Part shown: positions 2,559-11,425 of the stretch, in pieces
Numbering within the stretch: the stretch's first letter is position 1
How the letters are laid out: every line of letters begins with the position of its first letter
DNA from: a virus
Taxonomy: Duplodnaviria; Heunggongvirae; Uroviricota; Caudoviricetes
Length of the DNA: 11,425 bases
Direction: 5' to 3' (one strand)
IMG/VR virus record: IMGVR_UViG_2695420523_000016
Position numbers and translations under genes: made by a program
Notes under the pieces: model-generated
Database searches by the model: none
Told to the model about the DNA's origin: nothing
What the model saw: only the letters and a program-made list of their open reading frames with translations

Positions 2559-3287
2559 ATGAACAGAAAGCAATTCATCCAGTCACACGGAGCTACTTGC
2601 AGTAACTGGACGTGGAGTTGGTCATTTGTTAACCATGAAAAGAAGATGGTCATCTTTGGGTCATGGGATGTTGAGAGTGAGCATGAGCGATCTGTAATAC
2701 TCCGTGAGAAATGGGAATACAACTCAAACAACAAAAAACAACCGGGATACACCCAGGCTCTGGAACACATCAGGTTAGTCCATGAAGGCTACGAACTTTA
2801 CACCTTCAATATGGTTTTCGCAGAACATCCGGATAATCCCGAAATTGCAGTAATCAAAGATTTTGAGCGTAAATTAAACAAGCGATATCTTCGTAAAGAA
2901 GGCGTTGTTTGGTATGCAGACTTCTTACCTAATCCATTCCCCGATGAAATTCCTTCAGGAGAGAGTTTTGTTGAAGGTGCAAAGACTCAAGTAACAGTGA
3001 ACTACTACGAACGCGATCCAAAGGCCAGACAAGCCTGCATCCAGCATCACGGTACTACCTGTAAATGCTGTGGCTTCGATTTTGAGAAGGTCTATGGTAC
3101 ACATGGCCGTGGGTTCATTCATGTACATCACATCAAGCCGCTTCATACGATTGGGGAAAACTATGTAGTAAACCCCGTAACAGATATGATCCCATTATGT
3201 CCAAACTGCCATGCAATGGTACATCGTGGAAGCGGTGTACTTCCAATTGCAGACTTGAAAAAAAAAATGACATTATGGAGCGAGTAA
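2559..3287 (+). CDS. HNH-family nuclease: unassigned N-terminal domain of about 150 aa fused to a C-terminal HNH (McrA-like) motif
   Basis: 242-aa ORF with SD AGGAGG at 2549-2554. The C-terminal region CKCCGFDFEKVYGTHGRGFIHVHHIKPLHTIGENYVVNPVTDMIPLCPNCHAMVH shows the Cys pair, HVHH, and CPNCH-x3-H pattern of HNH nucleases. The N-terminal region (FIQSHGATCSNWTWSWSFVNHEKK...) matches no signature I can name. Confidence 0.85.
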   Translation: MNRKQFIQSHGATCSNWTWSWSFVNHEKKMVIFGSWDVESEHERSVILREKWEYNSNNKKQPGYTQALEHIRLVHEGYELYTFNMVFAEHPDNPEIAVIKDFERKLNKRYLRKEGVVWYADFLPNPFPDEIPSGESFVEGAKTQVTVNYYERDPKARQACIQHHGTTCKCCGFDFEKVYGTHGRGFIHVHHIKPLHTIGENYVVNPVTDMIPLCPNCHAMVHRGSGVLPIADLKKKMTLWSE

Positions 3288-4079
3288 ATGGATTTATCAC
3301 AATTGAGTAACGTCGAATTGATGCAACTGAATCAGTTGACGCTTGATGAGTTAGAACGACGAGAGGTTATCAGAACCAGAAACAATCCTATCAGTGAGTA
3401 CACTGAATGGCTGATTGCGGAAAAGATGCAAATGGTACTGGCTGCACCTAGTACTAAAGGGTATGACGCTACAACGATTGATGATCGAAAAATTCAGATT
3501 AAGTCTCGTAAGAATAATTTAAAAAACCGAACGTTAATTCTTGGAATTATCAGAAATTATGATCTGAACCAATTCGATGAACTCATTGCCGTAATATATA
3601 ACCATGATTTCTCAATTCGTTATGCTATATCCATACCACATGGATTAGTGAAGGAATATGGTTTTTATAATGAGCACCAGAATGGTTACACTCTAAGAAT
3701 CAGCAATTTATTACTTAATGATCCACGTGTAACAGATATCATTGAATTCATTGATCCAGACACTGAACGTTCAAAGGAAGAGATCACGGTGAAGCCAGAT
3801 TCAAACACTATTCGGGATGTACAGACAATAGGAATGCAGACATTTGTTGAGTACTATCAATATGTTGAAGGTGGAATGGACACAACTGATCTTGTTGAAA
3901 AGATGATAACTGACCATCCAGAGTGGAAGGAAAGTACTGCAAGAACAAAGGCATCTTCAATGCGAAGAGTATTCAAGAATGGCGACAACATTGAGGTACT
4001 AAAAATCATCTATAAGTCGAATCACCCAGCAATAACGCATGAGATTAAGAGTAAACTGATGACGCTTTGGGATAAATGA
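3288..4079 (+). CDS. Hypothetical protein, translationally coupled partner of the HNH nuclease; possible PD-(D/E)xK-like N-terminal region
   Basis: 263-aa ORF. Its ATG at 3288-3290 directly abuts the upstream TAA at 3285-3287, with GGAG about 9 nt upstream. The segment EYTEWLIAEKM...GYDATTIDDRKIQIKSR has an E...D...QxK spacing compatible with a restriction-endonuclease-like fold. No Walker A or methyltransferase motifs. Confidence 0.7.
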   Translation: MDLSQLSNVELMQLNQLTLDELERREVIRTRNNPISEYTEWLIAEKMQMVLAAPSTKGYDATTIDDRKIQIKSRKNNLKNRTLILGIIRNYDLNQFDELIAVIYNHDFSIRYAISIPHGLVKEYGFYNEHQNGYTLRISNLLLNDPRVTDIIEFIDPDTERSKEEITVKPDSNTIRDVQTIGMQTFVEYYQYVEGGMDTTDLVEKMITDHPEWKESTARTKASSMRRVFKNGDNIEVLKIIYKSNHPAITHEIKSKLMTLWDK

Positions 4080-4178: not shown

Positions 4179-4490
4179 TCAAAACGGTAATTCTCCCTGC
4201 TCACAAAACCATCCATCTTTATCATGCTGCTTATAGACTGCATTCTCACTACTCAGATATTGCAAACCTTCCAGTACTGAACATAGCTGCGTTTCCAGTA
4301 TGAACACGAAGCAAACACGCTCAATCGTGCCTAACCAGTAAGTACCTTGCTGGTGCTGGAAGAATACGCGATCCCCATATACAAACTTATCAAGGCTGTA
4401 TCCCCAATAGCAGACAGTAGCCCACTTGCCTAAATGTTCAAACTGCTGTGTACCGCTTTTGATTGCCGGATCAAAACCATTCTTGCCCAT
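4179..4490 (-). CDS. Hypothetical protein (103 aa)
   Basis: ORF in the track; GAGGG about 8 nt upstream of the ATG on the minus strand. By eye this stretch has higher GC than the flanking genes. No family recognised. Confidence 0.4.
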   Translation of the reverse strand: MGKNGFDPAIKSGTQQFEHLGKWATVCYWGYSLDKFVYGDRVFFQHQQGTYWLGTIERVCFVFILETQLCSVLEGLQYLSSENAVYKQHDKDGWFCEQGELPF

Positions 4491-4670
4491 GTTACACCCT
4501 CGCTACCGATACTGTTTATCCATACAGTTTGTCACCACATTTCGCACAGATCCAGCCATCAAGAGCACTTACCACTAAAAATGGTAGAAATTAAAATATC
4601 GATCATTTTAATTTGATCATAAGTTAAAAGTGATTAATTATCAATCAGTTATGGAAACTGAGAGAGCAAC

Positions 4671-5180
4671 ATGAAACTCGAACATTTGGCAATTCCGATC
4701 ACTTCATTGAATGGAAAATTACTCGGCGTTGAGCTGGAAACACGTGTACTTATAGATGGTTGCCGGGTGTTGGTTGGTATAGGTAAGGAAAGTGAATACA
4801 TACGTCACGTGGTCTATCAGAACCAGCTAAGAATGATTCAGGGCAAAGCCGCATGGTTTAAAGAAAAGGGGCTGTTGTGCGTGCTCAGTACTGGCAGGGG
4901 TACACGGTATGACGATCTACCATTCATACGGTACATGGCTGCTGAACCACTGCTAACCGACGGTTACGACGTAATACGACTAAATAGACGGTTCACTGAA
5001 GAACACATCGAAAGGCTGATTTTCCCGGTACTCATCAAGAACATCATGCAGTACTGCGACAAGGTGATCGTACAAGTCACTGGCAATAACAATCACAGGA
5101 TTCTACGAGAGTCGGGGATATGGGCAGTACAGGGAGAGTACAGGCCAATCCGCTTTGAACAATGCGAACAACTTCTATAG
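4671..5180 (+). CDS. Minimal or degenerate EAL-like protein (c-di-GMP phosphodiesterase-like fold, probably non-catalytic)
   Basis: 169-aa ORF with GAGAG upstream. The N-terminal PI-x-SLNGKLLGVELETR resembles the EAL-domain start motif (QPI...G.L.G.EALLR). The C-terminal VIVQVTGNNNHRILRESGIWAVQGEYRPI resembles the AEGVE...QGY motif with Glu replaced by Gln. The central DDFGTG region is absent. Confidence 0.5.
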   Translation: MKLEHLAIPITSLNGKLLGVELETRVLIDGCRVLVGIGKESEYIRHVVYQNQLRMIQGKAAWFKEKGLLCVLSTGRGTRYDDLPFIRYMAAEPLLTDGYDVIRLNRRFTEEHIERLIFPVLIKNIMQYCDKVIVQVTGNNNHRILRESGIWAVQGEYRPIRFEQCEQLL

Positions 5181-5190
5181 GGAAATAACA

Positions 5191-5514
5191 ATGAAAATAC
5201 TAATCGTCATGTTGGTAGTACTGCTCACATGCTGCGGCAGCGTACATCACTCATTCATGGATAAAGCCTTTGTAGGCACCGTAGATAACAAAGCTACAAT
5301 AGTACTGTTCGACGCTGGCACACGAAACGGGGTGAAGTACTACCGGCCTCAGTTTCATAGTGATTGTGGCCGCACCTACAATCCGATTTACCAGGTGGAC
5401 AATGGCAGTACTATGTGCTTAATACGAGATACACGTATTACTCATTTAAAATTATACAATATGTATATGGTTAAAGTTATTCCCAATGCAAACGACAGTA
5501 TCTATGAGAGGTAA
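5191..5514 (+). CDS. Putative small lipoprotein
   Basis: Signal peptide MKILIVMLVVLLTCCGS with a lipobox-like LLTC. I prefer the ATG at 5191 (AGGGA about 10 nt upstream) over the track start at 5155, which would put 12 residues ahead of the signal peptide. Confidence 0.5.
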   Translation: MKILIVMLVVLLTCCGSVHHSFMDKAFVGTVDNKATIVLFDAGTRNGVKYYRPQFHSDCGRTYNPIYQVDNGSTMCLIRDTRITHLKLYNMYMVKVIPNANDSIYER

Positions 5515-5691: not shown

Positions 5692-6153
5692 ATGAAAATT
5701 ACAGAAGAGTTAATTTATAAAACATTCAGTAATACCTTTGAAGGAACAATGATATTATTAAAGATTTCAATTCTTAGTACACTAATAACTTTATTCATTC
5801 TTATTAATGGTGCAGATCCTGGGGCGATAGAATCCATAAAGGTGGTCTTTGCTACACTTGCATTGTATGCGATGTCTGTAGGGATTGGCTTAGGTGCAAT
5901 GTTGCTTTCACCAATTACCTATAAAGTGGCTGATTGTTTCGAACTTAAAGCAAATAGCCCCTTATGCAAAGTGATTAGTATCGTATATGGGATGGTGTAT
6001 TTTGCTACAACATATGTAATAGCTACTTATTTGACTTATCTGATTACTGATAGTTATAGGACAGGAAAAGAATTAGTAGCTGTTTACGTAATTAGTACTG
6101 TGACAATATCTTTTATCCAAGCACGTCGTCTCTATAAACTCATTGGTCAATAA
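5692..6153 (+). CDS. Hypothetical integral membrane protein (about four TM helices)
   Basis: 153-aa ORF, AT-rich, with four hydrophobic segments (for example ILLKISILSTLITLFILI and LALYAMSVGIGLGAMLL). No family recognised. Confidence 0.5.
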   Translation: MKITEELIYKTFSNTFEGTMILLKISILSTLITLFILINGADPGAIESIKVVFATLALYAMSVGIGLGAMLLSPITYKVADCFELKANSPLCKVISIVYGMVYFATTYVIATYLTYLITDSYRTGKELVAVYVISTVTISFIQARRLYKLIGQ

Positions 6154-6219: not shown

Positions 6220-6579
6220 TTAAAATTCATCTAAAGTACTTCTTTTCTCGTCTATTACATTAAACTCTAAAAGTCCATCATTAACCTCAAAAGTAACGGT
6301 GGTTGAATATGAATCATCAATATCCATATCCTTACACATGTTATAAATGAAGTAGCTAATGCTATAATGCAAAACGTAGATATTTTCGTCTAAGTATTCA
6401 ATATCATCTATAATGAAATAGTCAGTAGATTGTGCTCTTGAATCAATGAAATCTAAATCAATATCCAAAATCTTTTTTAAAGTTATGTCACTATGATTTT
6501 TATCTAAGTAGTCATAGAGAATTTTTTCAGCTTCTTTCCCGTGGGTTGGAAGTGTTAAATTGAATGGATAGGTAGTCAT
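6220..6579 (-). CDS. Strongly acidic small protein (119 aa) in the moron position upstream of terS, on the opposite strand
   Basis: ORF in the track with AAGG upstream. By hand count about 26 Asp+Glu against about 9 Lys+Arg. No family recognised. Confidence 0.5.
   Translation of the reverse strand: MTTYPFNLTLPTHGKEAEKILYDYLDKNHSDITLKKILDIDLDFIDSRAQSTDYFIIDDIEYLDENIYVLHYSISYFIYNMCKDMDIDDSYSTTVTFEVNDGLLEFNVIDEKRSTLDEF

Positions 6580-6753: not shown

Positions 6754-9193
<2,440 letters not shown>

Positions 9194-9205: not shown

Positions 9206-11425
<2,220 letters not shown>

Follow-up and report, generated by a model that had tools for sequence, protein, structure and literature searches.

What can a phage do with an EAL domain from which a quarter of the barrel is missing? 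This question is raised by an open reading frame in the IMG/VR virus record IMGVR_UViG_2695420523_000016. The stretch of DNA analysed, referred to below as the window, has 11,425 nucleotides and about 38% GC, and the whole of it is identical to a second IMG/VR contig, IMGVR_UViG_2695420412_000018. The initial annotation had described the product of this reading frame as a minimal, catalytically degenerate EAL-like protein which, by analogy with YdiV, could act as a protein-binding regulator of host motility or biofilm behaviour.

The gene and its predicted product

The gene is preceded by a Shine-Dalgarno-like GAGAGAG (positions 4660-4666), located 5 nt 5' of its ATG. The features of the gene, of its protein and of the immediate flanks are collected in Table 1. 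At the N-terminus, 'AIPITSLNGKLLGVELETR' aligns with 'YQPVVDL..G.....EALSR', the start of the EAL domain of a GGDEF-EAL protein (P0093), and also with the STM1697-like proteins. The terminal 'VQGYY' motif has its counterpart in 'GIWAVQGEY' at the C-terminus. Both terminal EAL motifs recognized in the initial annotation were thus recovered by alignment.

An AF2 model was computed from the family alignment (mean pLDDT 81, pTM 0.77). The model was confident outside the junction. The N-terminal hairpin, formed by strands 2-11 and 17-28, reached a pLDDT of ~92, and residues 75-89 had values below 50. The segment of STM1697 which has no counterpart at this junction contains the ExxE strand with the helix after it, and also the DDFGTG-type loop.

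Table 1. Positions in the window of the EAL-like gene, of segments of its product and of the adjacent elements
Feature	Position	Strand	Remarks
Conserved upstream block, AAAA(A/G)TGAT(C/T)AA(T)TATCAATnnnnTTA (also AAAAATGATCAA(T)TATCAATnnnnTTA)	4626..4651	+	Ends 20 nt before the ATG
ORF of the 169-aa miniature STM1697-type EAL-like protein	4671..5180 (stop codon included)	+	ATG to TAG
N-terminal EAL hairpin 'HLAIPITSLNGKLLGVELETR', residues 5-25	4683..4745	+	Keeps the EAL-motif Glu (E21) and Arg25; from alignments
Junction, residues 75-92, low-confidence linker	4893..4946	+	~60 residues of the parental fold absent here (STM1697 82-141)
Equivalent of the FlhD-contacting STM1697 segment, residues 108-131 'FTEEHIERLIFPVLIKNIMQYCDK'	4992..5063	+	Alignment to STM1697 and interface of PMC5622320
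Gln137, in place of the catalytic EGVE Glu	5079..5081	+	From alignment; Pro or Gln in other family members
'WAVQG', residues 151-155, retained terminal QG motif	5121..5135	+	Invariant across the short family
107-aa ORF with N-terminal signal or lipoprotein-like sequence (MKILIVMLVVLLTCCGS)	5191..5514	+	Begins 10 nt after the stop codon of the EAL-like gene

Descent from the STM1697 branch of EAL-like proteins

When the single 169-residue protein was compared with the PDB sequences by phmmer, it matched STM1697 of Salmonella Typhimurium (PDB 5HXG) at E=3.3e-17. The match consisted of two collinear segments, in which residues 5-78 of the query correspond to STM1697 5-81 and residues 90-169 to STM1697 142-223, and the homology was significant in both halves of the protein. 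With a profile of 20 family members, STM1697 was reached at E=1.4e-30. Identity between the two proteins is only about 30%. STM1697 was the best match by sequence and by fold, the EAL-like fold of the 169-residue protein being closest to that of STM1697. On the basis of the phmmer, family-profile and AF2 results, the protein is an EAL-fold derivative of the STM1697 branch, and the EAL origin proposed in the initial annotation stands.

A search with the EAL profile had been suggested as a check of this origin, the lack of a significant match being taken to speak against it. No Pfam match was obtained for the 169-residue protein, even at E≤10, so that by Pfam EAL (PF00563) the assignment would formally fail; EAL descent is nevertheless upheld by the match to STM1697. 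The Pfam criterion is too strict, because STM1697, whose EAL-like nature was established by crystallography, itself scores 23.7 bits, below the gathering score of 31.3 bits. The longer members of the short family score 16-19 bits. Since STM1697 falls under the gathering threshold and the 169-residue protein has no match, a clade of EAL-derived regulators escapes those surveys of c-di-GMP-related proteins that rely on Pfam.

The analogy with YdiV is close, but the nearest relative is STM1697, the second anti-FlhD4C2 factor of Salmonella, and not YdiV. Similarity to YdiV/RflP (STM1344; PDB 3TLQ and 4ES4) was marginal (E=3.7e-4 with the family profile) and concerned only the N-terminal part. From these comparisons, the protein appears most like STM1697 and more loosely like YdiV/RflP. 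Like STM1697, it is a stand-alone single domain without catalytic residues. The two proteins differ in that STM1697 has 235 residues, forms a complete EAL-like barrel and is encoded on the chromosome, whereas the 169-residue protein is prophage-borne and has no equivalent of STM1697 residues 82-141.

Reduction of the barrel and loss of the catalytic residues

The alignment of the relatives showed a graded shortening. Full-length STM1697-like proteins contain 221-242 residues. In the short family (176-195 residues) the ExxE strand and the next helix are absent and 'WLDD[VL]G' is kept at the place of DDFGTG. In the 169-residue form and its close orthologues, a further 15-21 residues are gone, including 'WLDD[VL]G'; the absence of the DDFGTG loop, pointed out in the initial annotation, therefore corresponds to a deletion exactly there. 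With ~60 barrel residues missing, the protein is indeed of minimal size, and a complete (beta/alpha)8-type EAL barrel of about 240 residues is absent, a quarter of the barrel having been lost. The closest full-length relative (P0030, 224 residues) is found in an ordinary chromosomal context, which fits the capture of a chromosomal gene by a phage lineage, followed by its reduction.

The catalytic and metal-binding set is reduced to E21 of the EAL motif, R25 and Q154-G155, and the proposed catalytic degeneracy was thus borne out. The metal-site Asn is replaced by Leu/Ser, Lys-x-Asp has become Arg103-x-Asn105, and ExxE and DD are deleted. Gln137 occupies the column of the first EGVE Glu ('VIVQVTG' against 'VIVEGVD' and 'VVVEGLE'), as the initial annotation had it. 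For comparison, the EAL domain of the GGDEF-EAL protein has the EAL, ExxE, DD, Lys and QG motifs, with Leu for the first EGVE Glu.

These losses bear directly on the idea of a working c-di-GMP phosphodiesterase or c-di-GMP receptor. Such an activity could be argued from the EAL-fold descent, from the four retained residues and from a weak match of the last 70 residues to the NCBIfam PdeH model (NF008617; E=1.9e-6, 27 bits against a cut-off of 190). However, the protein has neither the metal-site Asn nor the two Glu of ExxE nor the two Asp of DDFGTG, Lys-x-Asp and the EGVE Glu are substituted, the barrel is incomplete and Pfam EAL is not matched. Furthermore, full-length STM1697 and YdiV neither bind nor cleave c-di-GMP (PMC5622320). 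An enzyme or a c-di-GMP receptor is therefore scarcely conceivable here, and this explanation was rejected on account of the motif loss. In contrast to PdeH/YhjH and to the domain described by Pfam EAL, the protein is devoid of metal and substrate residues and of a quarter of the barrel, and it does not belong to the enzymatic EAL phosphodiesterases (PdeH/YhjH type). From the motif alignment, it is predicted with high confidence to be without enzymatic activity. Binding of c-di-GMP would be very unlikely, because the full-length relatives already fail to bind it.

A fixed accessory gene of a prophage family

Relatives of the gene were present in 27 loci, from E. coli, Scandinavium, Lelliottia, Pseudescherichia, Phytobacter, Buttiauxella and metagenomes. 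In all of the loci extending far enough (25/25), the EAL-like gene lies 0.7-2.6 kb upstream of TerS and is followed by TerS, a GpA-type TerL, the head-tail connector and the portal gene. Variable cargo separates the EAL-like gene from a large serine recombinase encoded 8-10 kb upstream, and the IMG/VR contigs carrying longer forms of the gene measure 27-37 kb. The EAL-like gene is a fixed accessory gene of a serine-recombinase prophage family of the Enterobacteriaceae. In the window, it is located in a prophage of ~38% GC between defence cargo and the terminase and portal genes, in agreement with the horizontal acquisition initially supposed.

The general layout of these prophages (loci L004, L005, L024 and others) has the large serine recombinase at one end, then the 8-10 kb in which the cargo differs greatly between elements (HNH/mREase, DUF3800, DUF2971, Hcp, 8xMP and others) and, beyond the portal gene, a protease-capsid fusion followed by a Peptidase_S74 tail fibre. 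In several hosts the prophage is integrated beside yeaG(prkA)/mipA. The cargo of the window includes an HNH endonuclease (2559-3287) with a weak match to PADLOC mREase_IV, and a DUF6998 protein (3288-4079), the N-terminal 154 residues of which match PADLOC mREase_II, a type II methyl-directed restriction enzyme, at E=3.4e-61. The HNH/DUF6998 pair recurs in many E. coli chromosomes with about 82% DNA identity and is probably anti-phage defence cargo of the prophage. No PADLOC defence-system model matched the 169-residue protein.

The window prophage is damaged. Its GpA-type TerL is split into two overlapping reading frames in different frames (7285-7809 and 7778-9193), whereas TerL of the relatives is a single ORF of ~630 residues (for example 13050-14942 in locus L007); either a frameshift inactivating packaging or a sequencing error would account for this. 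In addition, an IS1 end (GGTAATGACTCCAACTTATTGATAGTG...) occupies positions 11161-11425, with the region coding for the C-terminus of InsB on the minus strand. As a result, the lambda-type portal gene (9721-11241) is disrupted at its 3' end, and the last residues of the portal ORF are read-through into IS1.

The gene is rare. One of 5,426 complete E. coli genomes carries the short family (169-195 residues with the window protein included), and among 1.84 billion representative proteins 70 were found at E≤1e-3, only about five clusters being of the short form. In the curated phage genome collection, the window gene had no DNA match and the short family was absent. The sole protein match in that collection was a 2-kb record which is really a copy of STM1697, and STM1697 used as query retrieved only ydiV or host-like inserts, in few records. 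The BFVD viral structure library gave no match at E≤0.001. The PHROGs entry phrog_32988, listed under 'unknown function' and with a profile 229 positions long, represents the full-length STM1697-like family and matches STM1697 at E=4e-27. Phage records with genes of this type resemble host-DNA inserts, such as P1 grown on MG1655 and the 2-kb 'phage' record.

Purifying selection on the shortened form

Homologues of the protein numbered 26 at E≤1e-3, the best non-self match having E 1e-97. Values of dN/dS were calculated by the Nei-Gojobori method with two 169-residue orthologues which carry the identical deletion, one from E. coli AREA_C483 and one from Scandinavium lactucae. The window gene gave a dN/dS of 0.13 (dS 0.39) with the former and of 0.15 (dS 0.27) with the latter, and the two orthologues compared with each other gave 0.28 (dS 0.16). 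These values are among the lowest of the neighbourhood, where the HNH gene has 0.09-0.11 and the flanking small ORFs have ~0.3. Because of the 26 homologues and of the purifying selection (0.13-0.15), the reading frame is not a chance ORF.

The same data were used to weigh a decaying, functionless fragment in a defective prophage. The damage to the window prophage, the loss of a quarter of the parental domain and the truncation of the gene in some relatives would all suit such a fragment. However, the 169-codon frame with the same deletion is found in at least 7 loci, and the substitutions between the 169-residue orthologues mostly fall in the low-confidence junction, residues 106-169 being almost invariant. 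Together with the low dN/dS against two independent orthologues, this clustering and the shared frame argue against decay, as do the confident model outside the junction and the conservation of the upstream block. A decaying fragment is thus quite improbable, and it was rejected in view of the dN/dS values and of the conserved frame.

Truncated copies are a separate observation. In the Buttiauxella lineage (L011, 10001-10390; L028, 6537-6926) the gene stops early, after 'FPVLL', and encodes 129 residues, and on one IMG/VR contig (L017, 8322-8729) only an N-terminally shortened ORF of 135 residues is left. Because of these copies, the gene appears to be in the course of being lost in some elements, and in these two lineages it is dispensable.

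Comparison with the FlhD-binding interface of STM1697

STM1697 binds the peripheral FlhD subunits of FlhD4C2 and excludes RNA polymerase, which leads to the repression of class II flagellar genes (PMC5622320). Its contacts with FlhD are V115, L116, L136, V147, F160, K167, L172, L173, K175, H176 and Y180. The interface is centred on F160 and L173, and binding is lost in the variants F160A/L173A and L172A/L173A/H176A (PMC5622320).

Eight of these 11 positions are kept in the 169-residue protein. Both hot spots are identical (F160 is F108 and L173 is L121), as are K175 (K123) and Y180 (Y128); V147, K167 and L172 are conservatively replaced by L95, R115 and V120, and H176 is changed to N124. The other three, V115, L116 and L136, were lost with the deleted segment. 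An Asn at the position of H176 is also found in a Citrobacter STM1697-like protein which passes the Pfam EAL threshold. Throughout the short family, the positions of F160, K167, L172, L173, K175, H176 and Y180 are occupied by F/Y, R, V/I, L/I, mostly K, N/S and mostly Y, respectively. The EAL domain of the GGDEF-EAL protein P0093 has unrelated residues at the FlhD-contact positions.

The FlhD-contacting helix of STM1697, 'FPLLVKHIRHYCDK', corresponds to 'FPVLIKNIMQYCDK' in the 169-residue protein. Over a length of 15 residues, STM1697 and the short family are most alike at 171-185, the FlhD-binding helix, and F118, P119, C129 and K131 of this segment are invariant in the family. When the FlhD-contact positions were tested by permutation for an excess of similarity, however, the trend observed was not significant (P=0.08 against random positions, 0.15 within the C-terminal half), and conservation specific to the interface is not claimed. 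The helix could therefore be conserved for folding alone, and the invariant WAVQG and GVE motifs indicate a constraint outside the putative interface.

Proposed function

Since eight of the 11 contact positions are kept, the most similar window is the FlhD-binding helix and four further residues are invariant in the family, an anti-FlhD4C2 role is the most likely function. The putative effect on host motility supposed in the initial annotation gains some strength from the conserved FlhD-contact residues. By analogy with STM1697, we consider that there is about an even chance that the protein is a minimised, prophage-borne anti-FlhD4C2 factor acting in the same mode. The dN/dS of 0.13-0.15 in spite of a decaying prophage and the fixed position upstream of TerS were counted in support of FlhD as the partner. 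The three contacts located in the deleted segment were counted against it, and a barrel lacking ~60 residues may expose new surfaces and acquire another partner.

According to the proposed mechanism, the partial EAL barrel would still present the helix pair by which STM1697 docks on helices 1 and 4 of FlhD. The protein would in this way bind the peripheral FlhD subunits of FlhD4C2, which would then be unable to recruit sigma70 RNA polymerase to the class II flagellar promoters, and the lysogen would carry fewer flagella. Plausible pay-offs would be the exclusion of flagellum-dependent phages, a reduced exposure of flagellin or a saving of resources. YdiV, which contacts FlhD through F155, F168, F181 and A184, opens the FlhD4C2 ring and strips it from DNA at high dose (PMC5622320); nothing indicates the same ring-opening and DNA-release mode for the 169-residue protein.

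A protein-binding EAL-like module might also be directed to a partner other than FlhD, which could be a different regulator of the host or a product of the prophage, for instance one connected with the neighbouring gene under probable SOS control or with the regulation of late genes or packaging. A role in the phage life cycle would suit the position of the gene, which is fixed in the prophage family just upstream of the packaging module and usually stands beside the divergent gene with the LexA-like box described below. Degenerate EAL proteins have varied partners, as illustrated by BluF-BluR. The deletion of three FlhD contacts and the lack of a significant enrichment at the interface are in line with such a partner too. 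On the other hand, both mutationally validated hot spots and at least four more contacts are identical or conservative, and no alternative partner is suggested by any of the data. In addition, STM1697 and YdiV, the nearest characterised relatives, both bind FlhD (PMC5622320). Another partner appears less likely, although it is the principal alternative, and FlhD is kept as the preferred one.

With FlhD as the partner, the history of the gene could be read as follows: one family of temperate phages of the Enterobacteriaceae would have captured a chromosomal STM1697-like gene and cut it down to a partial barrel of ~170 residues which still shuts off FlhD4C2. We put this account forward tentatively, as one that falls somewhat short of an even chance. 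No report of a phage- or prophage-encoded EAL-like anti-FlhD4C2 factor was found in the literature. If the account is true, the protein would have no known precedent among phages as an antagonist of the flagellar master regulator, as far as the literature and the phage collections searched extend. It would also be the smallest functional EAL-fold derivative, defining a minimal FlhD-binding module, and lysogens might be protected from flagellotropic phages.

The remodelling of flagella by phages through unrelated means is already known, TldR guiding the repression of flagellin in Enterobacter prophages (PMC13418256), and so are phage inhibitors of type IV pili, such as PlzR (PMC11461919). If the FlhD hypothesis is right, the likeness to TldR and PlzR would be that a temperate phage alters an appendage which is both a phage receptor and an immune target; the proteins and mechanisms are unrelated, and the comparison is a functional one only. 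Binding to FlhD would add temperate phages to the agents which rewire flagellar synthesis at the master switch. It would also provide a natural experiment on the extent to which an EAL barrel tolerates deletion without loss of its protein-binding surface, and a compact, genetically portable motility inhibitor for enterobacteria. If FlhD is not bound, the gene would still be a conserved prophage gene under selection, of modest interest.

Neighbouring ORFs and putative regulatory sites

The co-oriented 107-residue ORF directly follows the EAL-like gene in 17 of the 27 related loci and is probably its operon partner. Its dN/dS is ~0.3, and no match was found for it in Pfam, PHROG or PADLOC.

Upstream of the EAL-like gene, 200 nt were aligned between loci. 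The block listed in Table 1 was kept in 16/16 of them, whose proteins are only 43-92% identical, and it is a probable regulatory site of the gene. By pattern matching, a perfect IHF core consensus, WATCAANNNNTTR, was located within this block at 4639-4651. The consensus has three matches in the window, another of which lies at the IS1 end, a known position of an IHF site. In a scan for sigma70 promoters around the gene, 7 matches were found against 11 expected in shuffled sequence; because they are no commoner than in shuffled sequence, no promoter is claimed. Rfam returned nothing at its gathering thresholds over the whole window, so that no c-di-GMP riboswitch or other known RNA is placed near the gene.

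A LexA-box-like CTG-N10-CAG (TACTGTTTATCCATACAGTT) was found at 4512-4527, the only CTGT-N8-ACAG of the window. It lies 22 bp upstream of a divergent 103-residue ORF (4179-4490, minus strand, phrog_2100) and is kept in 12/12 aligned loci having this ORF, the products of which are only 44-59% identical. Because of this conserved box, the divergent gene is probably SOS-inducible, and it could possibly encode a Tum-type antirepressor. At about 145 bp, the box is too far from the EAL-like gene for control of the latter to be assigned to it.

Between the EAL-like operon and TerS, an AT-rich stretch (28-33% GC) contains an ORF for a predicted multi-pass membrane protein of 153 residues (5692-6153, plus strand) and another for an acidic protein of 119 residues (6220-6579, minus strand, phrog_13663). 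Among the loci examined, these two ORFs occur only in the window and in its identical IMG/VR contig. The TerS gene starts at 6789. Immediately 5' of it, at 6754-6783, lies a strong inverted repeat of 12 bp (AGTCCTCCTGAT...GTCAGGAGGACT) with a T-run after it. The repeat could act as a terminator; a function in packaging or regulation is another possibility.
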